DNA from: Minisyncoccota bacterium
GTDB taxonomy: Bacteria; Patescibacteriota; Minisyncoccia; Phycocordibacterales; UBA9973
Length of the DNA: 64,000 nucleotides
Direction of reading: 5' to 3'
Assembly (NCBI GenBank): GCA_041663005.1
Contig: JBAZRK010000001.1
Location: 93,360-157,359 of the forward strand
Part shown: piece by piece, positions 15,314 through 44,034 of the stretch
Position numbering within the stretch: position 1 is the stretch's first letter
How the letters are laid out: every line of letters starts with the position of its first letter
Translations under genes and position numbers: made by a program
Notes under the pieces: model-generated
The model's input: the letters and a program-made list of their open reading frames with translations, nothing else
Told to the model about the DNA's origin: nothing
Database searches by the model: none

Positions 15314-15320
15314 GCGAAAT

Positions 15321-29880: not shown

Positions 29881-29904
29881 GTTTGTTGATTATACTAAGA
29901 GTTA

Positions 29905-29933: not shown

Positions 29934-29983
29934 AATGTCGGAACTCGCCACGCAGAGTGGTGAGTCAACGGAGGAGAGAAACA

Positions 29984-30544: not shown

Positions 30545-30560
30545 CGGTCGCGCCAGAGAA

Positions 30561-30712: not shown

Positions 30713-30723
30713 TTTTTTAGTAG

Positions 30724-30732
30724 TGCTATAAT
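30724..30732 (+). promoter_or_regulatory. extended -10 element TGCTATAAT upstream of ORF 30785
   Basis: TGnTATAAT match lies about 50 nt upstream of an AAGGAGAT RBS and the ATG. Confidence 0.35.
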
Positions 30733-30784
30733 TTAAATATTAACAATAAATAAAAAATTTATGCCCTCAGAAGGAGATAACCCA

Positions 30785-31051
30785 ATGACAGCTCGCCAAC
30801 CGGAACATAAAAAGCTATTGCCGCAGCGTGGGCAATTGCTACAGCTAAGCAGCGGGTTTGACAGTCGACGGACTGATTTAGCAACCTACGGCAGAGACCC
30901 CTATTTGGTCTTGGAAGTTGTCGGCGACAAAGTCCACGTACGCAATGCTGATGGCCAGGAAGTGGATATACCCTTATCAAAGGTATCTTTACACTCATTA
31001 ACAGACAGCGAGCATTATATAAAGACGCACTTCCCAGATTTTAAGAAATAA
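30785..31051 (+). CDS. hypothetical small protein (88 aa), cassette 2
   Basis: AAGGAGATAACCCA-ATG RBS. Moderate-GC codon usage that differs from the host. Confidence 0.5.
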   Translation: MTARQPEHKKLLPQRGQLLQLSSGFDSRRTDLATYGRDPYLVLEVVGDKVHVRNADGQEVDIPLSKVSLHSLTDSEHYIKTHFPDFKK

Positions 31052-31064
31052 TTTTGAGTTATTG

Positions 31065-31098
31065 AAACGGCTCAACACTGTTGAGCCGTTTCTCGTTT
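31065..31098 (+). terminator. hairpin terminator after ORF 30785
   Basis: AAACGGCTCAACA-CTG-TTGAGCCGTTT followed by CTCGTTTG. Confidence 0.5.
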
Positions 31099-31156
31099 GC
31101 GGCAGCAGAACCTCGCGGAACATAAAAAGTCTTCGAGGCTTTTTCATTTTCCCAAG

Positions 31157-31185
31157 TTGACAGAACGCCCTAAAGTAGGTAATTT
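31157..31185 (+). promoter_or_regulatory. promoter module TTGACAGAAC-N-TAATTT (copy 1)
   Basis: TTGACA, 17-nt spacer, TAATTT. The module sits 17 nt upstream of CAGGAGGAAGCG-ATG. Confidence 0.5.
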
Positions 31186-31202
31186 ATGTGCAGGAGGAAG
31201 CG

Positions 31203-31418
31203 ATGGACAGCCACATTCGAATTACGCTGCCGGAATGGAATCACCGCGGTGTGGTCGAGCAGGTTGCCAAGCTCCTCGACCGACCCGTTGTCATCGTGAC
31301 ATGGGACGTAAAGTCCCTCACGATTAAGTCTAACGAAGCCCCCTTCAGTGGGAAAGACGTGGTGCGGGTTCAGAAAGATCTCGGTTTCACCGCCGAGATG
31401 CTCTACGAGCCCATCTAG
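31203..31418 (+). CDS. hypothetical small protein (71 aa), first gene of a 3-gene GC-rich operon
   Basis: AGGAGG RBS and GC3-biased codons. Confidence 0.5.
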   Translation: MDSHIRITLPEWNHRGVVEQVAKLLDRPVVIVTWDVKSLTIKSNEAPFSGKDVVRVQKDLGFTAEMLYEPI

Positions 31419-31432
31419 GAGGAGAGAGAAGC

Positions 31433-31708
31433 ATGAAAGCTCTGATGAAGGTCGGGATGATTCCCGACAAAACCCCGTTTGAGACCGCGGAAGCAGTTCG
31501 CGATCTCTTCGGTCGCAGTACTCGCCTCGTCTCGACCGACGAGGAAAAGAGGGAGGTTGTCTTGCAGTCGCTGACAATTCCCTTCTGCAAGGAGGATGCG
31601 GCGTCGGTGCGCCGCAATCTCAAGGTGGCCGCCGAGATGCTCGGAAAGCCGGAGGTGCCGGCCGCCGAAGCCAATGATGAACCCCACGTTCACCCGTGGG
31701 TCGACTAA
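31433..31708 (+). CDS. hypothetical small protein (91 aa), operon gene 2
   Basis: GGAGGAGAGAGAAGC-ATG RBS, 14 nt after the previous stop. Confidence 0.5.
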   Translation: MKALMKVGMIPDKTPFETAEAVRDLFGRSTRLVSTDEEKREVVLQSLTIPFCKEDAASVRRNLKVAAEMLGKPEVPAAEANDEPHVHPWVD

Positions 31709-31719
31709 GGAGGAGAAAG

Positions 31720-31977
31720 ATGTACATCACAGTTCGGAGTAACAGTGCAGAAATCGCTGAGGCTCGTCTTCTTCAGTCAGCCGTTTCCCGGCGGCTGGGG
31801 AAAGCGCTCATCTGGGCGCGTCTCGGCAGGGCAATCGTCATTTTCGGGCACAAGCAGGAGGACCAGCTCACCCCCGGAGACGTGCAGCTCCTCAACGGCG
31901 ACAAGAGGTTTGTCGCCCATGAGAGCACTGAGGAGGAGCTGAGCCGTTCGGGGCTGAGGATCCCGCAGGCTTCGTAG
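31720..31977 (+). CDS. hypothetical small protein (85 aa), operon gene 3
   Basis: TAAGGAGGAGAAAG-ATG RBS. Start reassigned to MYITVRS. Confidence 0.5.
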   Translation: MYITVRSNSAEIAEARLLQSAVSRRLGKALIWARLGRAIVIFGHKQEDQLTPGDVQLLNGDKRFVAHESTEEELSRSGLRIPQAS

Positions 31978-31993
31978 TCCTCCTTCCAGAGCA

Positions 31994-32127
31994 CCCCGCC
32001 GTGACGTTTGTTAGGTCACGGCGGGGGAGGCCAAGTTCTTTCAACAACAAGAAATTTTTTTCTCGAGCCACTCGGCTCGAACATCGAGCCTTGTGGACCG
32101 GAAACGCTTCACGAGGCTTTTCTTATT
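31994..32127. repeat. cassette-end module copy 2
   Basis: The 33-nt palindrome and GAGGCCAAGTTC are identical to copy 1. Then hairpin CGAGCC-ACTC-GGCTCG, then AGCCT...AGGCT followed by TTTTCTT. Confidence 0.6.
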
Positions 32128-32128
32128 T

Positions 32129-32560
32129 TTAGACCATAGTTAACTTCGCGCCCTTTTTCAAATACCAAATCGAAAGAATAAAAAGCAAAATATAAAAAAC
32201 GAGGCCATAAGCGCACGTAGGCAGACCCAAGCTATACTCCGTCCCGCCTGCAAGGAGTTTCCCAATTTCCGGTACAGTAAAATATCCGGCAAAGAGAATT
32301 CCAAGCCCAGATACTGTGCCAATAATTTTCAACATAGATTTTTCTTCAATCGTCTTCACCAGACCCAAGAGAGCGGTAAGGAAAATAATTAGAAACATTC
32401 CAAAGCCGAAATAACAAGCTGGGTAACCTAGGAAATAAGGGCAAGGTTCAGATAGCGCACAAGTGGATGTGAAAAATTTGACCCCACTAAGATAACCCGA
32501 AAACAATAACCCCGCGAGCCCGAGCCAAAACATAGTTTTAGCATAATTTAAGGTTTTCAT
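32129..32560 (-). CDS. small polytopic membrane protein (VKOR/DsbB-like thiol-oxidoreductase candidate), with host-like composition
   Basis: Four to five TM helices. Cys pair TSTCALSEPC in a loop. AT-rich codon usage like the flanking host genes. Confidence 0.5.
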   Translation of the reverse strand: MKTLNYAKTMFWLGLAGLLFSGYLSGVKFFTSTCALSEPCPYFLGYPACYFGFGMFLIIFLTALLGLVKTIEEKSMLKIIGTVSGLGILFAGYFTVPEIGKLLAGGTEYSLGLPTCAYGLVFYILLFILSIWYLKKGAKLTMV

Positions 32561-32621
32561 AAGCGTATTATATCACGTAAAGTCCACAGAAATTTGCTAG
32601 CTTTATGTGATTTTTATCAAT

Positions 32622-32650
32622 TTGACAGAACCGTTTTTGTGATGTAATTT
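32622..32650 (+). promoter_or_regulatory. promoter module TTGACAGAAC-N-TAATTT (copy 2)
   Basis: Same architecture as 31157: TTGACAGAAC, 17-nt spacer, TAATTT, then AAGTGCGGGAGG...ATG. Confidence 0.5.
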
Positions 32651-32669
32651 AAGTGCGGGAGGATTCGGC

Positions 32670-32975
32670 ATGATCATTTTGGTCTTGAGGGGGGAAGTGG
32701 CGATGTCTCGCACGGTCGTGGAAATTCTGCAGGGGGTGGATATCCGCCTCTCTATTTCAGGGGATTGGTTGGACAGAATGCATCACCAGGATGCGCTCAT
32801 CAACCAAAAAATCGTCGTGAGCCCCAACAACATAGCTTACCCCCGCCTGTTTGTGGCACAGGGAGGGGTTACGGAGTTTGCCGCGTATGCGGTAACCGAC
32901 ACGATGGCCCGGCAGGCCATCGAGCTCAACAGTGCCCTCGCCAAGCGAGCGAGGTTGCAGGAGGCAGAGAGATGA
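32670..32975 (+). CDS. hypothetical protein (101 aa), cassette 3 gene 1
   Basis: GGGAGG RBS and GC3-biased codons. Confidence 0.45.
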   Translation: MIILVLRGEVAMSRTVVEILQGVDIRLSISGDWLDRMHHQDALINQKIVVSPNNIAYPRLFVAQGGVTEFAAYAVTDTMARQAIELNSALAKRARLQEAER

Positions 32976-33229
32976 AGAAGGTCACCATCAGCGGAGTTTC
33001 CCGGCAGCTTGCCATCGGCGCGCTCGAGCTCATCCTTGACCTCGTCCCCGGCGCAACGTCCGTCGCGTGGGGGGACGACAAGGTCGTCGTCGTCACCGAC
33101 GACGTCGAAGTCGAGGCTCTGGCAACCCTCGCCGTGGCATACGGTGAGGACGAGGGGCTCTCCATCGAAGAGATCGAAGAGATCCTCCCGCCGCGGCCGT
33201 ATGTGCCCTCCGACGCCCCGCACTGCTAG
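32972..33229 (+). CDS. hypothetical acidic protein (85 aa), translationally coupled to 32670
   Basis: ATGA start/stop overlap at 32972-32975. The product has D/E/V-rich tracts (VVVVTDDVEVEAL). Confidence 0.45.
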   Translation: MKKVTISGVSRQLAIGALELILDLVPGATSVAWGDDKVVVVTDDVEVEALATLAVAYGEDEGLSIEEIEEILPPRPYVPSDAPHC

Positions 33230-33244
33230 TGCGGGGCCGCGGAA

Positions 33245-33385
33245 CCCCGCCGTGACGTTTGTTAGGTCACGGCGGGGGAGGCCAAGTTCTTTCAACAAAT
33301 TTTTTTTCTTTTCCCCGAACCCGGTTTCCGAGGTTCGTATCAAGAGCCTCAATGGAAATCCTTTGCGGCTCTTTTCAATTCTAAT
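33245..33385. repeat. cassette-end module copy 3
   Basis: Identical 33-nt palindrome plus GAGGCCAAGTTC. Then hairpin CGAACC-...-GGTTCG, then AGAGCC...GGCTCT followed by TTTC. Confidence 0.6.
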
Positions 33386-33471
33386 TTCTTTTCTTATTGA
33401 TTTAAATTAAAAATTTTGTATTATGAAATCGGCTAGTACCCTCGCAAGAGGCTAAGCCGGGAGGGCATTCG

Positions 33472-33690
33472 ATGACCAAGACGGTTGAAGTAGCTCCCGA
33501 GCAGTTTCCCGACCCGCACAATGTGCGGGAAAACGCGCTGAACGCGCTGTCGGCTTCGCCGACACCTCAGGCCGTGCGTGGCCACCTGCCTCGCCGGGAG
33601 AGGAGGGCGGTTCATCGGGAACTCGTCTACACGAGTGACCGGCAGCAGCCCCACCCGGATCTCCACGATCCGGGAAGACTCCCGAAGTAG
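33472..33690 (+). CDS. hypothetical small protein (72 aa)
   Basis: GGGAGGG RBS before the ATG, GC-rich. Confidence 0.35.
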   Translation: MTKTVEVAPEQFPDPHNVRENALNALSASPTPQAVRGHLPRRERRAVHRELVYTSDRQQPHPDLHDPGRLPK

Positions 33691-33743
33691 AGACCATCGC
33701 GGCGAGAGTCCTAACCTCTCGTCGCACCCTTAACACCGAAACA

Positions 33744-33772
33744 AAAGACGCCCAGTTAGGGCGTCTTTTGCA
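33744..33772 (+). terminator. intrinsic terminator
   Basis: AAAGACGCCC-AGTTA-GGGCGTCTTTTG. Confidence 0.5.
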
Positions 33773-33805
33773 TTTAAGCTTAAAAATGTTATGATATTTT
33801 CCATT

Positions 33806-33877
33806 GGCCCTATCGTCTAACGGTTAGGACATCGGCTTTTCAAGCCGGTAATCCGGGTTCGATTCCCGGTAGGGTCA
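33806..33877 (+). tRNA. tRNA-Glu (anticodon TTC)
   Basis: Acceptor GGCCCTA/TAGGGTC, anticodon stem TCGGC/GCCGG with loop TTTTCAA, T-arm CCGGG-TTCGATT-CCCGG. Confidence 0.85.
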
Positions 33878-35528
33878 CAGACAAGGATTTTTTATCCTGA
33901 AATTCGTCATATAGCTTGTAAGGTATAGATAGTTTTGGTGTTCCATTAAGTAATTCAGTATATGTTGGCAACTCATCAAAAACCAACCCATAAAATGCTC
34001 TTAAAAGAGTAAGATTCTTTTGTTTTATAAGGTATTCTTCTGGGTGTGCCATTAAGTTTTTTACATATCCTACAAAAGAGTGGACATCGTTCTCCTGAAC
34101 CTCAATTCCGTTTCTTTGCTCTCTGGTTTCTTCTATGCGTTGATGAAGTTTATTAATCTCTTTTTCAAGTTCTGCTCGTATAATTTCATTTGTTGTAGAA
34201 GTAAACGCATTAATCTTTTGTGTTTTCTCAAAATCAAGTTCTGCTACAGTTGTTCCCACTTTAACAGAAAACTCACCAAGTTCTTTTTCTTTCTCTCTAA
34301 ATTTATTTATCAGTGTTGCTTCAAGGGCTTTCAAAAAGCTTTTGTCTACGTGCTTTAATTTTTCTATGCAGACAGCAAGACCATCTTCAAATTCTTTCTT
34401 TGAAACTCTATATTGCTTGTGATTCCTAGCACAATGATATGCTGGAAAACTCTTGCCAGATTTACCAGTAGATGCACTACCTAAAAATGGTTTTTGACAT
34501 TCAGGGCACAACACAACTTCTTTAAAAGGATATAGGGGATTATCTTTCATTCGTTTTAACTGATGTGGGTTATAATCTTTATGTATCAAAATAGTTCCAT
34601 CCTTTTTCTCTTCAATAAAAAAATTGCCTTTATTTGCTCTGTTGTATTCGTCTATGCTCACCAACCCCTTGTAGTTAGTCCTAATAGGCGTTTTTAGCCA
34701 CTTTTCAGTATTAATTCCTGCATAGATGGGTCTTTGTATTATTTTCTGTAATTGCTTCACTGTAAGCTTTACACCGCCTCTCGAACCCAATATTTTATCT
34801 TTTGACCTTGACCACCTGTTTTGTTTCTTCGAACGATATCCAATAGCATTTATGTGGTCAACAATCTGCTGGTCTGTGTAAATGCCCGAAGCTCTCATTT
34901 CAAACATAGTAATAAAAAAGTGGGCTCGTTTAGGGTCTGAAACTTGAATCATTTTTTTCTTACCCTCAACGTAAATTCTTTCATTTACGAAACCATCATT
35001 TTCTTGCCTAACTTTATACCCTTCTCTTACTAAAGTTGCTTCTGCTCCAATCATTCTAGTAAGAATTTGATTAACTTCAATTTTACCTTGTTGAGCCATA
35101 ACAAGTTCTGTAATTTCACTAGGGCGTGTGATACTCCAGTCATATTCGAGACCAAGGTGTTCAAGAGTATTTTTTGTGGGCTGTATGATACCGTTAGAAT
35201 CAATTAATTGAACACCGTAATCAGCTAGTCGCTTTTTTAGACTTTCATACCCAAGAGTTCCATTTCTTGTAAAACGGTCTATGGAACGAAATATAATAAC
35301 ATCAACTTTTTTGGGAGACTTTTTTATAAAAGAAATAATGTCTTCAATAACAGGTCTGTCGTCTTTTCTACCAGAAAGTTGTTCCTTGAATGTTTTTAAA
35401 ACATCGAGTTTAAATTTTTCAGCAACACCGAGACAGATTTTTTCTTGCACTTCAAGACTTTCACCTTCTTGGGCTTGCTTTGCGGAACTAACTCGGCAAT
35501 AAATAATACAATTCTTATTTTCTTTCAT
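33840..35528 (-). CDS. large serine recombinase (resolvase/invertase catalytic domain plus recombinase domain plus zinc-ribbon/coiled-coil)
   Basis: N-terminal CIIYCRVSSAKQ contains the catalytic Ser motif. DRFTRN is present. 562 aa with C-terminal CPEC...C...HC. The last 38 nt are antisense to the tRNA-Glu 3' half. Confidence 0.85.
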   Translation of the reverse strand: MKENKNCIIYCRVSSAKQAQEGESLEVQEKICLGVAEKFKLDVLKTFKEQLSGRKDDRPVIEDIISFIKKSPKKVDVIIFRSIDRFTRNGTLGYESLKKRLADYGVQLIDSNGIIQPTKNTLEHLGLEYDWSITRPSEITELVMAQQGKIEVNQILTRMIGAEATLVREGYKVRQENDGFVNERIYVEGKKKMIQVSDPKRAHFFITMFEMRASGIYTDQQIVDHINAIGYRSKKQNRWSRSKDKILGSRGGVKLTVKQLQKIIQRPIYAGINTEKWLKTPIRTNYKGLVSIDEYNRANKGNFFIEEKKDGTILIHKDYNPHQLKRMKDNPLYPFKEVVLCPECQKPFLGSASTGKSGKSFPAYHCARNHKQYRVSKKEFEDGLAVCIEKLKHVDKSFLKALEATLINKFREKEKELGEFSVKVGTTVAELDFEKTQKINAFTSTTNEIIRAELEKEINKLHQRIEETREQRNGIEVQENDVHSFVGYVKNLMAHPEEYLIKQKNLTLLRAFYGLVFDELPTYTELLNGTPKLSIPYKLYDEFQDKKSLSVTLPGIEPGLPA

Positions 35529-35814
35529 ATACCAATTTATTGTTGAATGGGCTAATTATAACATTTTTTTCCTCAATTTTTTCACGCCACATAACATAAA
35601 ATGCTTCAGCTAAATCATCTTGTATTTGTCTAGCTTTAATAATCTCTTCTTCTGATAAACCAATATCATCTACATCTCCTAATGCTTTTTTATATTCTTC
35701 AAGTCCTATCATCCAATACTTTATTCTAATAAAAACCTTGCAAATAAGCTTCAGCTCTATTGTTAAAATTAATAAAAAAACCTTTTCCAGAAGAAAAAGA
35801 TTTACGACAAGCAT
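35515..35814 (-). CDS. small hypothetical protein upstream of the recombinase, overlapping it by 14 nt (possible regulator or directionality factor)
   Basis: The ORF overlaps the recombinase start. The acidic product has no recognisable HTH. Confidence 0.3.
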   Translation of the reverse strand: MLVVNLFLLEKVFLLILTIELKLICKVFIRIKYWMIGLEEYKKALGDVDDIGLSEEEIIKARQIQDDLAEAFYVMWREKIEEKNVIISPFNNKLVYERK

Positions 35815-35959
35815 CCTTCCCTTTAGGGGTTTTGGCTAGCACCGTTGCCACTCGACTGGCTGGTTGCTGGGCGGATTAACGAGCCAAAACTCTACCGCCT
35901 CTCCTGATACTGATATTTAATTTTACTTACCTAATAAGGATAGCACGGTTCTAAAACTG

Positions 35960-36165
35960 ACCCTGTAAAACTGTGGACAACTTTTTTAAGCTATATAATA
36001 CAAGGTTCTCAAAGAGTCGGAAAATTACCCCTATGAGTGCAAAAACCCCTAAGGATATATGCCCGCTAAAGAGTGCGAAAAGTCCTTTCCTCCTACTATC
36101 GTAGTTGTCTATAAACTCCTTCAAAGAGTGTAAAAACTCCCTCCCAAGGCGTGTAAAAACTCCAA
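35960..36165. repeat. iteron-like direct repeat array (consensus GAGTGYRAAAASYCC, plus two TAAAACTG units)
   Basis: Copies at about 36014, 36035, 36071, 36126 and 36149, with TAAAACTG at 35966 and 35981. Spacings are irregular (21-55 nt). Confidence 0.5.
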
Positions 36166-36649
36166 ATTTGCCTTTTAACGGTGATTTGTTATAAACTCTA
36201 CTTACAACTGAATAGTGAGCGTATCCAGAGCGAGGCGAGAGATTGGACTCAATGACCCTCCAACAACCTACCCAAAGGGCAAGGTGCTATCCACCAAGAT
36301 GACAGAAATGTTGTCGGGAAAGATGCAAAGGTCGAACATTTTTCCTCATTATTAGAGGAAATTTTTATTTTATGGAAGTAGTTAAATTAAGTATTAGACT
36401 TGGTCGTGATTCTTTCCAATATAATTCGGAAGTTCTTAGAAAGAATGGAAAATTTTACTATCGTGCAAATGGTGCAATCATAAAAATAACACCAATTGAG
36501 GCAAGATGTGTTATAAGAAACCCACGTCTTTACTATTTCTCTATTGCCTTGAAACTACACTTATTGATTAACAAAAAGCTTAAATCTTGATAGTATTAGC
36601 TTACAAGTAAATAAGAGACCTAACTCTTAAAGATTTTCTTTAAGATATG

Positions 36650-36795
36650 GTCGAAAGACCCATAGAAGATACTGAACCCCACGTGTTCAGCAACCTTCTA
36701 TGGGCTATACAGGGAAACTTGTATAGGGTCGCAAGACCTAGCTGGCGTGGGGTTCTGTGTTTATACCACGCTAGCTATTATCAGCTAGCTTTTTA
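36650..36795 (+). ncRNA. candidate structured RNA or cis-regulatory leader (uncharacterised)
   Basis: Nested perfect helices: CCCATAGAAG/CTTCTATGGG, CTGAAC/GTTCAG, CTATACA/TGTATAG, GNRA-capped GGTC-GAAA-GACC and GGTC-GCAA-GACC. A long-range 10-bp pairing GAACCCCACG/CGTGGGGTTC suggests a pseudoknot. Confidence 0.3.
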
Positions 36796-36799
36796 TTTT

Positions 36800-37033
36800 A
36801 TGAAAAAAGAAACAATAATGAGTCAGGTAATAATACTAGTTTTGGGGCTTACTTTAATTTTTATTCTGAGAGAGTTTCTAACAGATAAAATTATAGTGGA
36901 AGCTATGAGAGTTCAAGTAGAAACAATGGCAAGTAGAGCTGGATGTTTTGCTAACGCAAGAGAAAAAAATATTAATGATGGCGATTGCACGAGCATAGAT
37001 ATAACTGCTTACAAACTTTATCCTAAATATTAA
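36800..37033 (+). CDS. small membrane protein (77 aa)
   Basis: Start reassigned to MKKETIM. One TM helix (VIILVLGLTLIFIL). Sits immediately downstream of the structured region. Confidence 0.4.
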   Translation: MKKETIMSQVIILVLGLTLIFILREFLTDKIIVEAMRVQVETMASRAGCFANAREKNINDGDCTSIDITAYKLYPKY

Positions 37034-37043
37034 TTATAAATTT

Positions 37044-37688
37044 ATGAAAAAACATCTCACAATTTTGTTTCTCACAGTATTAATAATACCTTCTATCGCT
37101 TCTGCAACTTGGTGGAATCCACTTAGCTGGTCAAAAAATTCCAAGCAAATAGATACCATTGAACCAACATCAACTAAGCCAGTTGAAAAATCTATTCCTG
37201 TATCTGAAACTAAAACCACTGAATCAAAAGTTGTTGAAAGAATAGTAGAAAAACCAACAATCCAAACAATAACCGTGCAAGACCCCGCACTTCAAGCGAG
37301 GGTAAATATTCTTGTGGCGGAAAATGAATCTTTAAAAGCCCAAGTTGGTAGACTCCTTGAATCCAACAAATCACTCAATAAAGAATTATTGGCTTGTGAA
37401 GATACCCCAGCATCTACTTTTTCTGCTGATGACCAATGTGAGTATGCCCAAGATTCTCTAAAAGATTTTCTTGAACAGTATACCGAGTTAAGTGCTGAAA
37501 TAAGTAAGGAGCGAGAGAAAATAAAGAAAAACCCTGAAAGTGCCGAGAAACCTTACATAGATATTTATCATCGTTCTGGATTGAATGCTATGCTCAGTAG
37601 TTTCAATATTTCATCAAGTCAAAAACTCAAACCCCTTATTAAGGGAAAGGAATCTGCTGAATCAGCAGTAGCACTCTATTGCAACTAA
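37044..37688 (+). CDS. secreted coiled-coil protein of unknown function
   Basis: Signal peptide MKKHLTILFLTVLIIPSIASA, then a T/K/E-rich linker, then a coiled coil (LVAENESLKAQVGRLLESNKSLNKELL). Confidence 0.55.
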   Translation: MKKHLTILFLTVLIIPSIASATWWNPLSWSKNSKQIDTIEPTSTKPVEKSIPVSETKTTESKVVERIVEKPTIQTITVQDPALQARVNILVAENESLKAQVGRLLESNKSLNKELLACEDTPASTFSADDQCEYAQDSLKDFLEQYTELSAEISKEREKIKKNPESAEKPYIDIYHRSGLNAMLSSFNISSSQKLKPLIKGKESAESAVALYCN

Positions 37689-37869
37689 AGACCTAGAACT
37701 CTCTTCCTGTGGCATCGTAGAGCTTCCAGAACCTTGTCAGAATCTTGCCATCCGTTTTTTAAAGTATCCTAATTTTCAACGTTTTGGTTTTTGAGGACTG
37801 ATAAGGTAGTGTTAATAGTAAAGTGTCGGAAAATTCTCGTAAACCGTGTAGAAGTATTATACTTAAGTA

Positions 37870-39471
37870 ATGTTTAAAAACGAGAAAGGAGAAACAACTC
37901 TTCATATTGATACAAGGCTTGGAGAACTTACCACAGGTGAACCAAACGTGAACGAAGAAAAACTCAAGCAAGCTTTAAAGGCATACAATTTAAAAGAAGC
38001 CCTTTTAACTTTGTCTGAACTATCAAAAAACATTTTCAACGAAAACATTCCTGAACCATTTCAAAAGATGGGGAAAACTGGGATGCGTCATCCCGCAGGT
38101 TTAATTATTGCACAATTTGCTATTGAATATTTAGCTAGTGTTTTTATTATTTCAGGAGCTAACGATTATAAAAAAGAGAGCGTAAAAACAAAAGACAACA
38201 TATTGGGTCTTTTTAATATATATAATAATTCTCTTATACAACCTGTTTTTTTAGGCAATCATTTATCAACTTTACTTATACCGATGTATTTTGTTCAACT
38301 TAGAAGCCAATTTAGCCCCCAAGACCTTTTCACTAGGCAATGGATGATTTTTAGTGAAATGAGAAAAAAGACTAATAATATTTTTGAAGATATAAACAAA
38401 ATTATTTTTGACAACACAAATCTTACCATTGAAGAAATATCAGGGATTTCTTTTTCAATTTTTGCTTACTTAATACAAAATCCACTATTTAATATAGGAA
38501 ACTTAGAAGGACATACGGTTGAAAGCTTTAAAAATCTTTTAACTAAAGAAAAAATTGATTCATTTTTAAACTTATATACAGCTACTTATTCACAAATTCG
38601 TGAGTTAGACCAAAAGTTAAATCCGATAGACCTTAAAGAATATACAAAAGCCCGATTTAACCCCTTATGGAAAAAGCCAATAATAAAATTAGATGAAAAT
38701 TTATTTTTAGCACCTAGTTTAACAGCTTACACAACCGCAAGCTTTTATGGATTATTCTGGTGGTTTGACGATTACTATCGAGAGCAATCACAGAAGAAGC
38801 AAATGGATTTTAGGAAATATTTTGGAATTTTATTTGAAAATTACGCTGGAGAAGTTCTTTCAGATTTGTATGGAGAAAGTTCACTCAGAAAACAAATAAA
38901 GTATGGATTAAAGGGTAAAAAAATTGATTTTACAGATTGGGTAGTAATTAAAAACGATAAAGCGTATCTTTTTGAAGTTAAGGCATATCAATTTCCTCTA
39001 GAGGTTCTTCAAAAAGGAAAATCTGATGATGTTAGGAAACAGGTAATAAAAAAAATTGTTGAATCAATAAAACAGATATATCAAAGGTCTCAAGACATAC
39101 CTAAGCACAAGGAACTATCAGAGTTCAATAAAAAAGTAATAATCCCAATTGTGGTTTTTTATGATTTGCCTTTTATCTCTACTTCTCCTTCTTTGTATAA
39201 AGACGATATACTCAAAGCTCTTAACGGTTTAGATTCTAAATATAATGGGATTAAAGATTTTAAATATTACCTAATGAATATTGATGAATTGGAAGATTTT
39301 TATTATTGCTCTGATAATATTGAGATAGAGGATATCTTTGAGAATATTAAAGATAACCCAGCCAAAGGGGTTAATTCTGAAATTATTATCCATATAAAAG
39401 ACAAGAGTCGAAAGAATTTTCTCGATAGACAATTTAATAAATATTTAGATGACTTAGTGCCTGAATTATAA
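37870..39471 (+). CDS. hypothetical protein with a C-terminal PD-(D/E)xK-like nuclease motif (operon gene A)
   Basis: 533 aa. KKIDFTDWVVIKNDKAYLFEVKAY matches a D...(D/E)xK arrangement. No other domain recognised. Confidence 0.55.
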   Translation: MFKNEKGETTLHIDTRLGELTTGEPNVNEEKLKQALKAYNLKEALLTLSELSKNIFNENIPEPFQKMGKTGMRHPAGLIIAQFAIEYLASVFIISGANDYKKESVKTKDNILGLFNIYNNSLIQPVFLGNHLSTLLIPMYFVQLRSQFSPQDLFTRQWMIFSEMRKKTNNIFEDINKIIFDNTNLTIEEISGISFSIFAYLIQNPLFNIGNLEGHTVESFKNLLTKEKIDSFLNLYTATYSQIRELDQKLNPIDLKEYTKARFNPLWKKPIIKLDENLFLAPSLTAYTTASFYGLFWWFDDYYREQSQKKQMDFRKYFGILFENYAGEVLSDLYGESSLRKQIKYGLKGKKIDFTDWVVIKNDKAYLFEVKAYQFPLEVLQKGKSDDVRKQVIKKIVESIKQIYQRSQDIPKHKELSEFNKKVIIPIVVFYDLPFISTSPSLYKDDILKALNGLDSKYNGIKDFKYYLMNIDELEDFYYCSDNIEIEDIFENIKDNPAKGVNSEIIIHIKDKSRKNFLDRQFNKYLDDLVPEL

Positions 39472-39479
39472 TAATTTAT

Positions 39480-40628
39480 ATGAATATTAGCGAAATAATG
39501 AAAAGTGCTCCCAGATATCTTGCGATGCGGTATGGCTCATTGTATACCTATGTTTGGCAAAGTTTATTTCCCAAGGAATATATAAACAAAGTTCTTTACA
39601 GAATTGACAACCCAAAAGAAAAAAAGGAAAAGTTTTTCCGAATGAAAACAATAGCAGAGGAGGCATCTGTGTTAGTTTTCCTTTTCTATACCAAAAAAAT
39701 GTTAATTGAAGGGGCTAATGCCACAAAGAACACGGTTGATATCCTAAAGGAACTAGATATTAAAGAATTTCGCTTGGGGAAAACAAGGTTTGCTGGAAGA
39801 AACAATAACGTCATATTGGGAGATAGGCTTGCGGAAAGACTTCTACGTTTACTTGATGATGATGTAAAAAGACTTCTTTCAAGAACTGAATATATGTCTC
39901 AAATTATTGACCACTACAGAAGGTTAAGAAACGAGGAACGCACATATAATTATTTATTCGACAAAAAAGAAGCGGAAGTAAAATTAAAAAGATTTTTTGC
40001 AAATGAAAAACCACGCCTACGGACTTTCGGAAATGTTGTAAATCAAGTGTTTGAAGCCTACACTTTTGCCTCTACCATAAAATGGTATCAAAGTAATGAG
40101 TGGTTAGTTCACATAATTAATCCAAAAGTAAAAAGCAAGGGTATTTTTCGGTTGAAATTTTCAACTATGGGTGCACCAAATAAATACAGTTATGCAATAT
40201 GTGAAAAAGGAGAAAAAAAATGCCAAATAAGACACCAGTTAAGAGTAACTACAGAATCCTATCGAGATAAGAATAACTATAGAGCTAATATATGCTGTGA
40301 TATTTCGGTCATAAATAATTTAGATTTGAACCTTTATTCAACTGCTATGGCTATCCCAAACAAGGAATTGATTTCATTTGGTGAAGTTAAACATATGTCT
40401 GCTTTTGCGGAGCTTTTAGCGAACTTTGTTGGATTAGTTCACGAACTACAACCACGTAGATTAAGAACAATTAGAACCAGAAGATGGGCGAGAAATGAAC
40501 ATATTTCACCATTTCTAAACGTCAGTGGGTTTTTGCAACCTACTGCAAAAGGCTTGAATGAAACAATTGAAAAGAGAAAATATGACATTGATGTATACCA
40601 TTATGAAAATAAAATGGTAAATATCTGA
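39480..40628 (+). CDS. hypothetical protein (operon gene B)
   Basis: 382 aa, starting 8 nt after gene A. No recognisable motif. Confidence 0.5.
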   Translation: MNISEIMKSAPRYLAMRYGSLYTYVWQSLFPKEYINKVLYRIDNPKEKKEKFFRMKTIAEEASVLVFLFYTKKMLIEGANATKNTVDILKELDIKEFRLGKTRFAGRNNNVILGDRLAERLLRLLDDDVKRLLSRTEYMSQIIDHYRRLRNEERTYNYLFDKKEAEVKLKRFFANEKPRLRTFGNVVNQVFEAYTFASTIKWYQSNEWLVHIINPKVKSKGIFRLKFSTMGAPNKYSYAICEKGEKKCQIRHQLRVTTESYRDKNNYRANICCDISVINNLDLNLYSTAMAIPNKELISFGEVKHMSAFAELLANFVGLVHELQPRRLRTIRTRRWARNEHISPFLNVSGFLQPTAKGLNETIEKRKYDIDVYHYENKMVNI

Positions 40629-40679
40629 AAGAAATTAAATATATGTTAAAATAGGATAATTTCTAAAAAACAAATTAAA

Positions 40680-41642
40680 ATGATAAAAATTACACTTGAT
40701 ACAAATTGCGTTATAAACCTACTTAACTTTAATGCTGAAACACCTACTTCTGTAGATGAACTTTCCGAAATTATAAAATATGGGCTTGATAGTAATGCTA
40801 ATATCGCTATTACAACCAGAGTTGAAAGCGAATGTGAAGGAGACAAAAATAAAGAACGCAGTAAGGAAATGATACGTAAGATACAAATGTTGCCTGTAAT
40901 TGGCACAGTTGCACGTTGGAATACCTCAAAATGGGATGGCGGTGATGTTTGGGGAGGTCAGGAACACGAAAAGTTGTCTGATGAACTTACAAAAATAATT
41001 TTTCCAGCTCTAAAAAAAGAAGATGCTCACTATAAAAATAAGATAAATGATATTGACCATCTCGTAGGGCACATTATTAATAAAAGAGACATATTTGTAA
41101 CCGATGATGCACAGATTCTTAAAAAATCTGAGACACTTAAAGCAAGTCTCAATTTAACAGTGATGAGTCCAAAACAAGCCCTAGAGTATCTAAATTCTAG
41201 AGGTGATAAAACAATCCTAGTCCAAGATTTTTATGATAAGTTTCTAGAACAGAAAAAATTAATCTTAAAATTTCTCACATCTGAAAAAGATTTGGAACTG
41301 CTCGATAAGTATGAAGAAAATCGTCAATGGTTAATCCGTAAATACCCCAACATTAAAGATGGATTGGGAGATTTTAAAGTGCAACAGATGTCAGTTCCAA
41401 TGGGCGGACAAAGAGCCTTTACTCAAATTGATATTGTTTCTTTGCAGTTCTTTAATAAAAAACTAAATGCCTTGTTGGTGGAAAGAAATCCTCTGAATAT
41501 TCCAGATATTATATCTAATAATCCCGATAGCTACGCTGTCGTTTATTTAAGTGAAGAAGAGAAACTAGGTAAAACCATCAGTTTCTTAAATAAAATAGAG
41601 GATTTACTACTTGGATACTTAGGAAAATTAGAAGGAAAATAA
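40680..41642 (+). CDS. PIN-domain protein with a roughly 150-aa C-terminal extension (operon gene C)
   Basis: N-terminal IKITLDTNCVINLL contains the first PIN Asp. RDIFVTDDAQIL matches the fourth acidic motif. Confidence 0.6.
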   Translation: MIKITLDTNCVINLLNFNAETPTSVDELSEIIKYGLDSNANIAITTRVESECEGDKNKERSKEMIRKIQMLPVIGTVARWNTSKWDGGDVWGGQEHEKLSDELTKIIFPALKKEDAHYKNKINDIDHLVGHIINKRDIFVTDDAQILKKSETLKASLNLTVMSPKQALEYLNSRGDKTILVQDFYDKFLEQKKLILKFLTSEKDLELLDKYEENRQWLIRKYPNIKDGLGDFKVQQMSVPMGGQRAFTQIDIVSLQFFNKKLNALLVERNPLNIPDIISNNPDSYAVVYLSEEEKLGKTISFLNKIEDLLLGYLGKLEGK

Positions 41643-42271
41643 TGACCTCAATTAAAGTCTTAAAGAAAAGGTTCGAAGAAGTTACCAATGCTGTCTCTCG
41701 GTTGGTTGATGATAGATATTTTTTCCTTGAATATAAGAAATACCTCGAAGAACACCCGAATATTGATAAAAATAACGAATTTTTATATTTTATAGGTTTA
41801 AATTATGTAGAAACCACTTGTTTGGGGATATTCCGTCAGGTTGACCGCAATCCAAAATCTCAAAGCCTATTAAACATACTAAAGACTATACAAAAAGAAC
41901 ACGAATCTTTTACTCTTGGATTCTTTTGTAGAAAATACAGAAGAAGTAATGCAGGCTTAGGTAATGGAATAAAAGATTTTTCTCAGTTTGCTCTTAAAGA
42001 TGGTAAAAAAATAAGTCCTAAAAAAGTTAAATCCGATATATTGGCTCTTATAAAAATAACCAAACCCATTGTTAAATATAGACACAAATTTGTAGCTCAC
42101 AGAAATATAAGGAAGGTCACAATAAACGTGAAAATGAATGACTTATACACGGTAATTGATTTTTTAGAGAAAATGGTGAGTAAATATCAGCTCCTTATCA
42201 ATCAAGCAGGAATGCCTTCGTTACGTGCAGGAAATTCGCATCCTAATCTGCAAGCCGTCTTTAAAGAATAA
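41642..42271 (+). CDS. putative HEPN-like protein (operon gene D)
   Basis: TAATG overlap with gene C. YRHKFVAHRN contains an R-x5-H match. The assignment is tentative. Confidence 0.45.
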   Translation: MTSIKVLKKRFEEVTNAVSRLVDDRYFFLEYKKYLEEHPNIDKNNEFLYFIGLNYVETTCLGIFRQVDRNPKSQSLLNILKTIQKEHESFTLGFFCRKYRRSNAGLGNGIKDFSQFALKDGKKISPKKVKSDILALIKITKPIVKYRHKFVAHRNIRKVTINVKMNDLYTVIDFLEKMVSKYQLLINQAGMPSLRAGNSHPNLQAVFKE

Positions 42272-42275
42272 TTGT

Positions 42276-42788
42276 ATGAAAACTTCCGCACCTATTTCTA
42301 AAAGTCAAAATTCAGAAAGTATATTTTTTCAAAATATACTTCATTTTCTTTTATCTACTCACATAATACCGCTAAGAGAATATTCTTTGCAGTATGTTCC
42401 AAAAAATCAAGCAAAAATCGTAACTCTAAAAACGAGTTTTGGAGAAGATATATCTACTTATCTTGAAGAATTACCAACACCTTCAGACAAAGATTTTAAT
42501 CAAATTTCAGCCCGTATTTTAATTAATGGATGTTATGAAATCTTTAAAGAAAGTTCTATAAAAGAAATAACTTCTTCTGAAGTGGTTGAATTTTTTCGAC
42601 ATATACGAAACGCATCATCACATAAAGGTAAATTTATATTTAAAAAAGACGAGCCAAGGAAAAAAGCGAAATGGCGAGAGCTGGAGATTACTAGAGACTT
42701 AAACGGCTCTGACCTATTTGATTTTATAGCTATTGGCGATGTCATATTACTTTTACAAGATATTGATGATTGGGAAATCATAAAGTAA
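42276..42788 (+). CDS. HEPN-domain protein with canonical RNxxxH motif (operon gene E)
   Basis: Start reassigned to MKTSAP, 4 nt after gene D. FFRHIRNASSHKG carries R-N-x3-H near the C-terminus. Confidence 0.55.
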   Translation: MKTSAPISKSQNSESIFFQNILHFLLSTHIIPLREYSLQYVPKNQAKIVTLKTSFGEDISTYLEELPTPSDKDFNQISARILINGCYEIFKESSIKEITSSEVVEFFRHIRNASSHKGKFIFKKDEPRKKAKWRELEITRDLNGSDLFDFIAIGDVILLLQDIDDWEIIK

Positions 42789-42974
42789 AACTTTTGACTC
42801 TAGTTCTATAACTGATTGGGTAATTATTCAAATTGCTTTTACGCCATAAAACCTTTATAATAAAGGAGCTTTGAAACATTTAGGAAACAAGTTCAATGTG
42901 AGCGAAAACATTATTCCAAGTAATAATCATATTTTCAATGGAGTTCCATTGCAGATATGGTGAGCTCACTGCGA

Positions 42975-43061
42975 GGAGGCGTGGCTGAGTGGTTGAAGGC
43001 ACCGGTTTCGAAAACCGGCATTGGGGAAACTCAATCGTGAGTTCAAATCTCACCGCCTCCG
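42975..43061 (+). tRNA. tRNA-Ser (anticodon CGA)
   Basis: Acceptor GGAGGCG/CGCCTCC, anticodon stem CCGGT/ACCGG with loop TTCGAAA, long variable arm, T-arm GTGAG-TTCAAAT-CTCAC, discriminator G. Confidence 0.85.
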
Positions 43062-43107
43062 CAAAATATCTCATTACATATGTAAGGAGACGTGTAAGGA
43101 GATAAAA

Positions 43108-44034
43108 TTATTTCGTATTCAAGTAAAGATAAATATCTTCGAGAGCACGGACGGCATCACCGGCGGCGATGTTGTTCTGGTGATAGAGAATGTTCGTTGC
43201 ATCACCCGCGGCCCAGATGCCGGACACTTCGGTTTTCTGATTTGAAAAGTCTATTTTAATTCTGCCGATTTCATCAAGCGGGACAAGTTCCTTCGCAAAT
43301 CCGGTATTCGGAATCTGTCCTATTTCCACGAAGATACCGGCAACTTTGAGTGGCTTCGTTTCTCCAGTTTTAGAATCCTTATAAACAAGTCCATCCACAA
43401 ATTTATCACCTGTGATTTCTAGGATTTCCGTGTTTTTTATAACTTTCATTTTCGGATTTTTAAGAACCTTCTCTACAGTTACTTCGTCAGCCTTGAAAGT
43501 GTCGCCTCGGATGAGGAGGGTCACGGATTTGCAGTAGGCGAGGAGCTGGGCGGCAGTTTCAAAGCCAGCATTGCCGCCACCCACAACAGCCACATCCATA
43601 TCGGCGAAGAGGGGTCCATCGCAAGAAGCACAGTAGGTGAGTCCTTTGTTTTCGAGCCTGTCAGCTCCTATAGCAGTGAGCTTCCTGCGGAGGCTACCCG
43701 TGGTTATGAGGACGGTCTTCGCCTCGAATTCTTTGCCTGCGTCAGTTTTTATAGAAAAATTGGAACCCTTTTTTTCAACAACTTGGACCTTTTCACCTTC
43801 AACTACTTCCAGGCTGTCGCCGACGTTGGCCATAACGTGCTTTTTGAAATTTTCTGCAAGTTCATTTCCTGAGAGGGAAACAGTACCTATCCAGTTGTAT
43901 ATTTGTTCAGAGACCACGCTCTGTCCGCCCCATTCCGCAGTCACAAAAAGCGTTTTCATACGCTTCCTGGCTGCATATACAGCGGCTGCAGTGCCGGCAG
44001 GTCCACCTCCGATAATTATCAAATCGTAAATCAT
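43108..44034 (-). CDS. trxB: thioredoxin-disulfide reductase
   Basis: FAD motif IIGGGPAGTAAAVYAARK, redox-active CASCDG and NAD(P) motif VVGGGNAGFE. Confidence 0.85.
   Translation of the reverse strand: MIYDLIIIGGGPAGTAAAVYAARKRMKTLFVTAEWGGQSVVSEQIYNWIGTVSLSGNELAENFKKHVMANVGDSLEVVEGEKVQVVEKKGSNFSIKTDAGKEFEAKTVLITTGSLRRKLTAIGADRLENKGLTYCASCDGPLFADMDVAVVGGGNAGFETAAQLLAYCKSVTLLIRGDTFKADEVTVEKVLKNPKMKVIKNTEILEITGDKFVDGLVYKDSKTGETKPLKVAGIFVEIGQIPNTGFAKELVPLDEIGRIKIDFSNQKTEVSGIWAAGDATNILYHQNNIAAGDAVRALEDIYLYLNTK

Follow-up and report, generated by a model that had tools for sequence, protein, structure and literature searches.

A host tRNA-Glu(UUC) gene and a host tRNA-Ser(CGA) gene enclose an AT-rich island within a 64,000-nucleotide stretch of DNA from a Minisyncoccota bacterium (contig JBAZRK010000001.1, positions 93,360 to 157,359, referred to here as the window). 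The island opens with a gene for a large serine recombinase (LSR) and appears to be a mobile element that was inserted at the end of the tRNA-Glu gene. The window is contained within the 332,839-bp contig k141_962724 of ENA ERZ27249449, which is the source of the gene calls used. The island is flanked on one side by the housekeeping genes for LeuS, TsaD, GDH and a nucleotidyl-transferase and on the other by those for TrxB, FtsZ and FtsA, and profile searches with Pfam and NCBIfam found no housekeeping gene inside it. An earlier account of the DNA, made without database searches (the sequence-only reading), had described just such an AT-rich segment, led by a 562-residue serine recombinase and free of housekeeping genes, and on these points it was right. 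It had placed the segment at 33806-43061; the island does lie between the two tRNAs, but these coordinates include both host genes, and the element itself occupies 33879-42965.

The guanine plus cytosine (GC) content over the 9,087 bp of the island is 0.328 compared with 0.438 for the rest of the window, the host baseline being the window minus the island and without a GC-rich block at 29957-33770. Host windows of 1 kb have a standard deviation of 0.026 and a minimum of 0.391, whereas all nine 1-kb windows of the island fall between 0.303 and 0.368. The GC content at third codon positions is 0.18-0.29 in island genes versus 0.38-0.53 in host genes, and the tetranucleotide L1 distance between island and host is 0.378 versus 0.106 +/- 0.025 (maximum 0.160) for host chunks of 9 kb. 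The drop in GC content is real, sharp and far beyond the variation of the host.

The junctions of the island are defined by the recombinase gene itself, which is split between the two ends. The gene runs, on the opposite strand, 39 nt into the 3' part of tRNA-Glu, such that codons 1-551, including the core codon V551, are element DNA and the last 11 codons (TLPGIEPGLPA) together with the stop codon are tRNA-Glu antisense. At the far end of the island, just upstream of tRNA-Ser and in the same orientation as the recombinase, lies a detached tail of 28 codons that begins SSPYLQWNSIENM. In the reading direction of the recombinase the left junction, attL, reads ...TCT GTG/ACC CTA CCG, where the second part is tRNA antisense, and the right junction, attR, reads gca GTG/AGC TCA CCA TAT CTG CAA TGG. 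Joining the two ends at GTGA gives ...KKSLSV/SSPYLQWNSIENM... (KKSLSV-SSPYLQWNS...), which is in frame and generates a protein of 579 residues. The rebuilt circle is about 9,091 bp (33879-42965 plus one copy of the core) with the attP junction ...AAATCCTTGTCTGTGAGCTCACCATATCTGCAATGG..., and the rebuilt attB is tRNA-Glu...GGGTCAC-TGCGA-tRNA-Ser with the junction ...CCGGTAGGGTCACTGCGAGGAGGCGTGG... The tRNA-Glu gene stays intact despite the insertion and only its 3' trailer is altered.

Table 1. Features of the island and its bounding tRNA genes, in window coordinates
Feature	Position	Strand	Basis or remark
tRNA-Glu(UUC), host gene	33806-33878	+	ARAGORN; Rfam tRNA 65.5 bits; 3' end GGGTCAC as in relatives
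Large serine recombinase, integrated form, 562 aa	33840-35528	-	Pfam, PHROG and TP901-1 catalytic-domain matches
attL core	33875-33878		TCAC on the + strand, GTGA in the recombinase reading direction
Element proper	33879-42965		9,087 bp, plus the 4-bp core duplicated at each end
65-aa open reading frame (ORF)	35515-35712	-	Source gene call; overlaps recombinase start by 14 nt
Terminator-like hairpin and U-run	35770-35803	-	11-bp stem in minimum free energy (MFE) fold, then UUUUUUU; between aptamer and 65-aa ORF
SAM-I-like aptamer, recombinase side	35803-35913	-	Rfam RF00162 41.3 bits, E 6e-8
Five direct repeats, 19-21 nt, AAAGAGTGyrAAAAnyCC	36009-36163		Repeat families D2 and D5; between the aptamers
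SAM-I-like aptamer, o72 side	36218-36334	+	RF00162 37.8 bits; own covariance model R1 30.9 bits, E 4e-6
Terminator-like hairpin and T-run	36341-36371	+	Terminator scan; immediately 5' of o72 start codon
o72, small basic protein	36372-36590	+	46% identical homologue at the same position in L091/L092
LOOT RNA (RF03000)	36617-36739	+	81.2 bits, gathering score 46.4; model positions 1-121 of 121
Hairpin and T-run after LOOT	36770-36799	+	Terminator scan
77-aa hydrophobic (membrane) ORF	36800-37033	+	Directly 3' of LOOT
214-aa protein, backbone gene	37044-37688	+	Signal-peptide-like N-terminus by eye; coiled-coil-like middle
o533, 533 aa, distant GapS1-family relative, predicted PD-(D/E)xK nuclease	37870-39471	+	
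o382, 382 aa, restriction-endonuclease-like C-terminal domain	39480-40628	+	AlphaFold2 (AF2) pLDDT 84
o320, 320 aa, N-terminal PIN fold and helical C-terminal domain	40680-41642	+	AF2 pLDDT 82
o209, AbiU2-type HEPN (abortive-infection family)	41642-42271	+	Pfam PF18734 1.1e-10, 41.8 bits, cutoff 26.8
o170, 170 aa, HEPN-like, R-x4-H motif (RNASSH)	42276-42788	+	Start per source gene call
Detached native recombinase tail, SSPYLQWNSIENMIITWNNVFAHIELVS and stop	42880-42966	-	P' arm of attP
attR core, TCAC	42966-42969		Inside 10-bp palindrome GTGAGCTCAC at 42960-42969
tRNA-Ser(CGA), host gene	42975-43062	+	ARAGORN; Rfam tRNA 58 bits; begins 5 nt past attR core

The full-length homologues P0025 (DLCVSSPYLQWNTIENMVIKWNSVF; DLCVSSPYLQWNTIENM) and P0099 (SLSVSSPYLEWNTIENM) agree with the rebuilt protein at the junction and where the tail begins, and their attached tails are about 70% identical to the detached tail over the 28 codons. 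The attP of P0025, on contig L096, reads TGTGTGAGCTCACCGTACCTGCAATGGAAC and corresponds to the left side of attL and the right side of attR of the integrated element in locus L093, with identity switching exactly at GTGA. This tetranucleotide is the sole sequence common to attL, attR and the attP of the homologues, its place being taken by GCGGGC in a subfamily that uses tRNA-Trp. Since the identity of the flanks switches exactly at GTGA, the crossover is located within those four bases. Serine recombinases make a cut with a 2-nt stagger, which fits a crossover inside GTGA. Short direct repeats had been anticipated near both ends by the sequence-only reading; a repeat search of 29800-43400 found no direct repeat of the tRNA-Glu end and no long att repeat, as is expected for a serine recombinase, and it is the 4-bp core and the split recombinase ORF that define both ends. 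The 10-bp palindrome GTGAGCTCAC, within which the crossover GTGA lies off-centre, is kept in the attP of L096 and L097 and in the attR of L093, and is degenerate in L084 and L091.

The junctions also bear on the idea that the island is an assembly chimera, in which AT-rich foreign DNA was mis-joined into a Nomurabacteria contig. The assembly is metagenomic and composition changes sharply at both ends, as a chimera would require, but such an explanation is hardly credible when both junctions make exact sense through the split ORF and the shared 4-bp core, when identical copies of the cargo proteins o382 and o320 are found on a second contig of 336,733 bp (NCBI, JGI, Logan), and when the same architecture recurs in independent assemblies.

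Relatives of the locus were collected by scanning 185,579 species genomes with TrxB, which gave 80 loci that were then searched with tblastn and ARAGORN. All 80 come from metagenome-assembled genomes of Candidatus Nomurabacteria, Paceibacteria or Patescibacteria, with 66-86% identity, and they keep the gene order FtsA-FtsZ-TrxB-tRNA-Ser(cga)-tRNA-Glu(ttc)-...-NTP-transferase-GDH-tRNA-Val-TsaD-LeuS. Neither the recombinase nor any other island protein was found in any of these 80 syntenic loci. In about twenty loci the distance between the two tRNA genes is 13-200 bp, and in five (L011, L012, L039, L043 and L055) tRNA-Ser follows tRNA-Glu after 13-36 bp in the same orientation. On gene order and spacing, this adjoining pair is the unoccupied site, the empty site that the sequence-only reading had looked to related genomes to provide.

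From the composition, the junctions and the empty site, it is likely, with a probability of about 0.87, that 33879-42965 represents a mobile element of about 9.09 kb, integrated but neither conjugative nor viral, which can be described as a small integrative defence island and which its LSR inserted at the extreme 3' terminus of tRNA-Glu. The sequence-only reading had offered an integrative plasmid, a phage remnant or a defence island that targets a tRNA locus. An integrative element of the defence island kind is the part of this that stands; a phage remnant is unsupported and an integrative plasmid is left without a replication gene.

The relatives also invite a quite different reading, whereby the recombinase does not integrate DNA but inverts it, or works as a regulatory switch, in the tRNA region and the AT-rich genes are a hypervariable part of the chromosome. 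The orientation of tRNA-Glu and tRNA-Ser does flip with respect to TrxB among relatives, and the three intergenic gaps are variable. Nevertheless, this is very improbable, as in all five integrated elements the body of the ORF and its detached tail point the same way instead of being inverted, which is the topology of integration and excision. Moreover, a protein of 562 residues with a Recombinase domain and a putative Zn-ribbon is unlike the small invertases, and the relatives with flipped tRNAs carry no recombinase.

Several further features of this interval were apparent among the relatives. The spacings between TrxB and tRNA-Ser, between tRNA-Ser and tRNA-Glu, and between tRNA-Glu and the NTP-transferase gene differ among species from about 10 bp to 10 kb, and tRNA-Glu(ttc) and tRNA-Ser(cga) face one way or the other with respect to TrxB depending on the Nomurabacteria species (loci L004-L083). 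These variable spacings and orientations mark the interval from TrxB to TsaD as a hotspot of recombination and insertion. In L093 the inverted tRNA-Glu is occupied by a sister element. Two relatives, L021 (11749-11796) and L052 (12434-12490), which are without any recombinase, give short tblastn matches (E about 1e-5) to a P0003-type native tail, LIIRNWNQIFNQVKGF, near the tRNA hotspot; judging from these matches they may be scars, namely attR remnants, of lost elements.

The recombinase has the domain organisation of an LSR. It contains a Resolvase domain (PF00239, residues 8-116, 1e-16, 61.8 bits against a cutoff of 23.3) with the catalytic motif IIYCRVSSAKQ (YCRVSS), followed by a Recombinase domain (PF07508, residues 201-300, 24.1 bits against a cutoff of 21.1). 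The PHROG 95 profile, annotated 'integrase', aligns to residues 1-476 with an E-value of 7.7e-36 and the catalytic domain of the TP901-1 integrase is matched with an E-value of 2.8e-4. A Cys/His pattern (CPECQ...YHCARNH) and a long charged helical stretch at about 400-480 can be recognised by eye. The C-terminal region of about 90 residues (about 460-551) is extra and specific to the family. Upstream of the recombinase in all twelve family loci examined is the small ORF of 65 codons, with tblastn matches of 43-68% identity at the same position in L084-L097. This protein has no match in Pfam, NCBIfam or PHROG and is a candidate accessory or directionality factor.

The recombinase belongs to a large family. 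A total of 491 homologues were found at E<=1e-5 with up to 78% identity, and of the best 120 of these, 90 have tRNA-antisense tails (...GIEP..., ...RIEL...) and 14 have a native tail, the native tails being similar to one another (LxWNTIENMxIKWNxVF). A search with the C-terminal 151 residues against 1.84 billion cluster representatives gave 281 clusters (50% identity) at E<=1e-3; among 42 full-length representatives, which extend to about 25-30% identity, tRNA-antisense tails again predominate and the WN-type is a minority. Genomic contexts were obtained from a scan of metagenome contigs with the recombinase, which gave 4 loci, and for the most part from look-ups of exact proteins. All tRNA-type tails for which DNA was examined overlap a tRNA gene (L084, L085, L086, L091/L092, L093/L094, L095, L100 and L101).

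Four further integrated elements (L084, L091/L092, L093 and L095) have a tail detached at the far end in direct orientation, and all four share the same anatomy. With the recombinase on the plus strand, this consists of the detached tail, also on the plus strand, the cargo, the 65-residue ORF, the recombinase body and an antiparallel tRNA. Their recombinases are 63-78% identical and yet they carry entirely different cargo. The element in L084 (about 11.3 kb) is found at tRNA-Glu(ctc) with a 1,520-residue helicase/nuclease, and that in L091/L092 (about 7.5 kb), also at tRNA-Glu(ctc), has SMODS+AGS_C and SLATT_4 genes resembling a cyclic-oligonucleotide-based anti-phage signalling system (CBASS). 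The element in L093 (about 7.9 kb) carries type III restriction-modification (R-M) at tRNA-Glu(ttc) and occupies the corresponding TsaD...TrxB hotspot in a different Nomurabacteria genome. In L095, from the same sample as the window, tRNA-Trp(cca) is occupied by an element of about 9.8 kb with SIR2 and DUF87/HerA genes and the core GCGGGC, which is also present in the attP of the homologue P0081.

This last protein is found in L088 (ENA ERZ27336873 NODE_13, 448 kb), where the region 7685-18925 holds P0081 beside a TraG/TrwB-like coupling protein and a second small resolvase, together with three ArdC-like MPTase-PolyVal proteins and an RHS/SpvB toxin of 2,322 residues. There is no tRNA within 10 kb of P0081, and the region looks like an integrative and conjugative element in a genome of the Candidate Phyla Radiation (CPR).

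The tails of the family, whether detached or attached, are conserved at the protein level. Pairs of tails differ at a proportion of 0.07-0.26 of non-synonymous sites (pN) compared with 0.32-0.73 of synonymous sites (pS), giving pN/pS of about 0.15-0.45. Such purifying selection indicates that the tails are conserved as protein and not merely as a DNA site, which implies that the element passes at some stage through a circle in which the ORF is complete. It also has a bearing on the rather unlikely case that an element inserted in the manner described here has since become fixed and immobile, as a relic or a domesticated island, whose tRNA-fused recombinase is inactive or merely retained. Consistent with a relic, the integrated recombinase is without its native 28-residue tail, no transfer genes were found, and neither a circular form nor an empty-site allele of this exact element was detected. 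Set against this, the recombinase ORF, its 65-residue partner and the detached tail are all intact, the tails are under the selection just described, and the island is absent from all 80 species-level relatives. The sister elements, with 63-78% identical recombinases and different cargo at like sites, including the same hotspot in L093, argue for recent and repeated mobility.

In comparison with known LSRs (phiC31, Bxb1, TP901-1 and A118, as well as XisF and CcrA/B), the recombinase shares the resolvase domain with YxRVSS and the Recombinase domain, its Cys/His pattern and long helical stretch may correspond to their zinc ribbon and coiled coil, and the family likewise uses simple att sites with a very short common core and has its recombinase gene at the edge of the element. 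Unlike the usual LSRs it targets the 3' end of a tRNA, its attP lies inside the recombinase ORF such that the last 28 codons are exchanged, it has the extra C-terminal region of about 90 residues, and its hosts are CPR bacteria. Integrative islands at tRNA genes are textbook examples of mobile elements, and are almost always associated with tyrosine integrases. The present element resembles these islands (P4-like, Islander-type) in that the integrase abuts an intact tRNA, the cargo is of foreign composition and many cargo variants share a hotspot. In contrast, it has only a serine recombinase and no Phage_integrase match, it has no distal repeat of the tRNA 3' end but only a core of 4 bp (6 bp in the tRNA-Trp type), and crossover takes place at the last bases of the acceptor end rather than in the anticodon or T loop.

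The integrases of the archaeal fuselloviruses, typified by SSV1, are tyrosine recombinases with attP inside the int gene, which is split into two large parts on integration. The likeness extends to an attP within the integrase ORF and an ORF that is split across the element ends beside a tRNA; the differences are a serine recombinase, a CPR host, no viral genes and the exchange of just 28 of 579 codons, leaving the enzyme core intact. A survey in 2020 described serine integrases at t(m)RNA genes in 14 of 297 cases as previously unreported (PMC7192596). Our literature search found nothing on tRNA-targeting LSR elements in CPR bacteria, and we have not found a description of this family of patescibacterial elements that insert at tRNA 3' ends with attP inside the recombinase ORF and that have riboswitch-like aptamers and LOOT in their backbone.

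The family provides an LSR clade tied to tRNA 3' ends, comprising hundreds of clusters that come nearly all from uncultured Patescibacteria and having junctions that can be defined exactly. For genome engineering it offers natural attP/attB pairs in which one target half-site, the acceptor and T arm of a tRNA, is highly conserved, and the swapping of the tail upon integration is a natural experiment on the extreme C-terminus of an LSR.

The region between the recombinase operon and the remaining genes of the element is occupied by regulatory features. The sequence-only reading had mentioned one structured RNA candidate, and there are in fact three RNAs, namely LOOT and two aptamers similar to the S-adenosylmethionine (SAM) riboswitch class SAM-I (RF00162). 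The aptamers are divergent, one facing the recombinase operon and the other facing o72, and the Rfam matches span 35808-35913 on the minus strand and 36218-36312 on the plus strand. The two closest elements, L092 and L101, have the pair at the same places and keep both terminator hairpins; the orthologous aptamers of L092 score 53.5 (recombinase side) and 46.2 bits (o72 side), which is over the RF00162 gathering score, and those of L101 score 30.3 and 39.5 bits.

A covariance model was built from the three recombinase-side copies with the SAM-I four-way junction specified by hand, after an alignment of all six copies with MAFFT and RNAalifold had given a poor consensus with misaligned 3' halves. 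The model retrieves the three o72-side aptamers at E of about 1e-6 and nothing else in 206 kb. Across the six copies 94.6% of cells are paired compared with 33-41% in slid controls, and eight pairs have compensatory double changes, a number reached in none of 500 shuffles; the alignment was fitted to the model and holds only six related sequences, and the covariation therefore supports the fold and not the identity of the ligand. Helices P2 and P3 are supported by compensatory changes, the conserved core nucleotides are present, and the pseudoknot between the P2 loop and J3-4 covaries by eye. The z-scores of MFE for the riboswitch regions are not significant, a measure that is uninformative for AT-rich leaders.

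In their four-way junction, conserved core, pseudoknot and following terminator with U-run these RNAs are like SAM-I (S-box) riboswitches. They are unlike them in the sub-threshold scores of the window copies, in forming a divergent pair within a mobile element, and in leading a recombinase operon and an o72-LOOT operon where methionine, cysteine or SAM genes would be usual. A targeted search of full-text literature found no paper that describes a SAM-I-type riboswitch before a site-specific recombinase, and such riboswitches fronting a recombinase of this kind may be an undescribed arrangement.

Between the two aptamers lie the direct repeats, the iteron-like array of the sequence-only reading, which is real and comprises five copies. 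It is present in L101 and absent from L092. The repeats are putative protein-binding sites, for which an operator role may be proposed as a speculation. An integrative plasmid, in which the array is an iteron origin that supports autonomous replication once the element has been excised, would account for five intergenic repeats of 19-21 nt that are kept in L101, and for the contigs L096 and L097, which hold unintegrated-type copies without host genes. This is quite improbable, as searches with Pfam, NCBIfam and PHROGs found neither a Rep nor a primase, helicase or partition protein, L092 has no such array although it is co-linear in other respects, and the position of the array exactly between two divergent riboswitch-led units is that of an operator.

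The o72 gene, which follows the second aptamer, has no family match in Pfam, NCBIfam or PHROG. The LOOT RNA that comes next was defined as a candidate small RNA without known function (Weinberg et al. 2017, PMC5737381). It is also present in five related elements (L085, L086, L092, L095 and L101), and in three of the six elements LOOT lies 3' of a SAM-I-like aptamer and o72. In all six a small hydrophobic or signal-peptide ORF of 58-245 codons starts 36-61 nt after LOOT, and a related segment follows the RNA, reading CTGGCTA[AG]GAGCTTTTTGC in four and divergent in the window and L086. As a speculation, LOOT and the small ORF resemble a type I toxin-antitoxin or maintenance module, with LOOT in the place of a structured leader to a small membrane toxin; alternatively, LOOT resembles a cis-regulator rather than a free small RNA. 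In either case, this orphan RNA gains a genomic home in the backbone of tRNA-integrating LSR elements. The last gene of this segment encodes the 214-residue protein that the sequence-only reading had seen as a secreted coiled-coil protein, a description that fits what was found. It gives weak coiled-coil-type NCBIfam matches only, and a 31% identical homologue in L091/L092 shares the N-terminus MKK..ASWWNP.SW.

All of the cargo genes are on the plus strand and run toward tRNA-Ser. They encode five predicted nucleases, in keeping with the nuclease operon that had been noted from the sequence alone, and these are of the kinds typical of anti-phage and abortive-infection systems. The first, o533, matches the GapS1 family (NCBIfam NF047931, E 1.4e-17, profile positions 92-443 of 455) with 63.7 bits, under the cutoff of 320. 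It also has weak NERD (E 0.08) and HEC-02A (E 0.003) matches at residues 328-430 and, by eye, the motif IDFTDW...LFEVKAY (D...EVK), and a 66% identical homologue adjoins another family recombinase in L085. GAPS1 is a PD-(D/E)xK anti-phage protein that is triggered by a capsid protein (bioRxiv 10.1101/2023.03.28.534373).

The predicted structure of o382 has BsoBI (E 1e-4), the CBASS nuclease NucC and Bse634I as its top Foldseek matches in PDB, all with a low TM score, and E302 and K304 of an ExK motif are invariant. The C-terminal 225 residues of o382 (about 160-382) are widespread as a highly conserved stand-alone protein with 50-67% identity, without a Pfam family, in Flavobacterium, Cyclobacteriaceae, Ignavibacteriales, Udaeobacter and many metagenomes; the domain has a restriction-endonuclease-like fold and seems to represent a family of nucleases, as yet uncharacterised, that moves horizontally. 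For o320, Foldseek matches include VapC11 (6a7v, TM 0.71 on the target, probability 1.0), HARP RNase P and the PIN domain of SMG6, and PADLOC reports the candidate PDC-M11A (3.6e-7). Residues D7, D124 and D143 are invariant in 29 homologues; there is no sequence-level Pfam PIN match. At the sequence level, none of o533, o382 and o320 matched an entry in PDB.

The next gene encodes AbiU2 (o209). An obligatory link between o320 and AbiU2 was considered and rejected, as o320 occurs alone in L098, another LSR island. There, at 171-8963 of L098/L099, a 62% identical homologue of o320 without AbiU2 stands at the edge of an island with a different LSR of 531 residues, an HTH_36 protein and a 1,007-residue aminotransferase/methyltransferase fusion. 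Finally, o170 has a weak Pfam HEPN_LA2681 match (E 0.054) across its motif region.

The cargo and its setting leave little room for a degraded prophage or phage satellite. Serine integrases are common in temperate phages and the recombinase does match PHROG 95. However, this origin is highly unlikely given that there is no other PHROG match with a known function, that no relative was found among 2.9 million IMG/VR contigs, and that family members of 7.5-11.3 kb have defence cargo only. GMT islands are known to carry GAPS systems (bioRxiv 10.1101/2023.03.28.534373). The present element is like such mobile defence islands (GMT, PICI-like) in having a small mobility backbone with swappable anti-phage cargo, here including a distant GapS1 relative. 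It differs from GMT islands in possessing a single LSR and a 65-residue protein rather than the GmtY/Z/X trio, in its patescibacterial host and in its riboswitch-led backbone with LOOT. The family points to an exchange of defence functions among CPR bacteria with tiny genomes, with predicted CBASS-like, R-M, SIR2-HerA, GapS1-like, PIN and HEPN cargo on one backbone.

The insertion of this defence island can be pictured as follows. In the free circle the recombinase ORF would have 579 codons with attP within its 3' end. From what is known of serine integrases, attP would recombine through a 2-nt stagger inside GTGA with an attB that comprises the final bases of tRNA-Glu(UUC) and the adjoining downstream DNA. 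Integration would then fuse the recombinase body to 11 tRNA-antisense codons at attL, keeping the tRNA whole, and would strand the native 28-codon tail 9 kb away at attR, beside tRNA-Ser. Excision would be expected, by the same analogy, to need a directionality factor, for which the 65-residue protein and o72 are candidates. Expression would proceed from two divergent transcription units, each led by a SAM-I-type aptamer and terminator, one for the 65-residue protein and the recombinase and the other for o72, LOOT, the small membrane ORF and the secreted protein. On the SAM-I architecture, high SAM most likely terminates both units and low SAM permits expression of the recombinase, and the repeat array between the units probably binds a regulator encoded by the element.

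A number of observations weigh against an element of this kind, or against parts of the scheme. The Zn_ribbon_recom domain (PF13408, residues 334-373) scores 17.8 bits, under its cutoff of 25.3. Both aptamers of the window are under the RF00162 gathering score of 44.4, neither Rfam nor the covariance model finds SAM-like aptamers in more distant family members, and the genes that the aptamers precede, the recombinase operon and the o72-LOOT operon, are unrelated to sulfur or methionine metabolism. Amongst the cargo, AbiU2 alone passes a curated cutoff, the other defence assignments being weak family or fold matches. Pfam, NCBIfam and PHROG searches found no replication, conjugation or transfer, virion or packaging genes. 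The half of attB on the host side, downstream of the tRNA, is not conserved among insertion sites, which is unusual for the attB site of an LSR. The rebuilt 579-residue protein has no exact match in a collection of 15 billion proteins, neither the excised circle nor the empty attB of this exact element was seen, and the unintegrated-type contigs L096 and L097 have no terminal overlap that would mark them as circular. Moreover, P0081 has a full-length native tail inside a contig of 448 kb, and hence a native tail is no proof of a free circle.

A more ambitious proposal, which is doubtful when taken as a whole, is that the exchange of tails and the riboswitches together constitute a built-in state switch of an undescribed class of CPR element. 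The WN-tail of the free circle (LxWNTIENMxIKWNxVF) would favour integration, and the tRNA-antisense tail would give an enzyme that is excision-competent or silenced without a classical directionality factor. Expression of the enzyme would be gated by a SAM-I-type riboswitch, such that a fall in SAM, through starvation of the episymbiont or a phage SAM-lyase, would trigger mobilisation of the island, and LOOT would be a leader or antitoxin-like RNA of a membrane-toxin maintenance module.

The insertion puts 9.1 kb between tRNA-Ser(CGA) and tRNA-Glu, which with their spacing of 13-36 bp in relatives are probably co-transcribed there. All five cargo genes are oriented toward tRNA-Ser (42789-43062 region), and it may be speculated that this tRNA is now transcribed by polymerases that run on out of the cargo operon. 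Transcripts of tRNA-Glu that ran on into the island would be antisense RNA against the 3' part of the recombinase mRNA.

On the 5' side of tRNA-Glu, the block at 29957-33770 has a GC content of 0.54 compared with 0.44 for the host. It contains about eight small ORFs of 72-195 codons with strong GGAGG ribosome-binding sites, arranged in three modules and without a Pfam match, and the same 33-nt hairpin, CCCCGCCGTGACGTTTGTTAGGTCACGGCGGGG, closes all three modules, with GGCCAAGTTC and a T-run after it (30561, 31994 and 33245). The block is absent from the 80 relatives and from IMG/VR, and an identity as rRNA was rejected as there is no Rfam match even at E<=1. It encloses a VKOR-like gene at 32129-32560 on the minus strand, which is native at that position in L012 and L066. 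The block resembles a further foreign insertion, or an array of cassettes, that is unrelated to the island but lies in the same hotspot.

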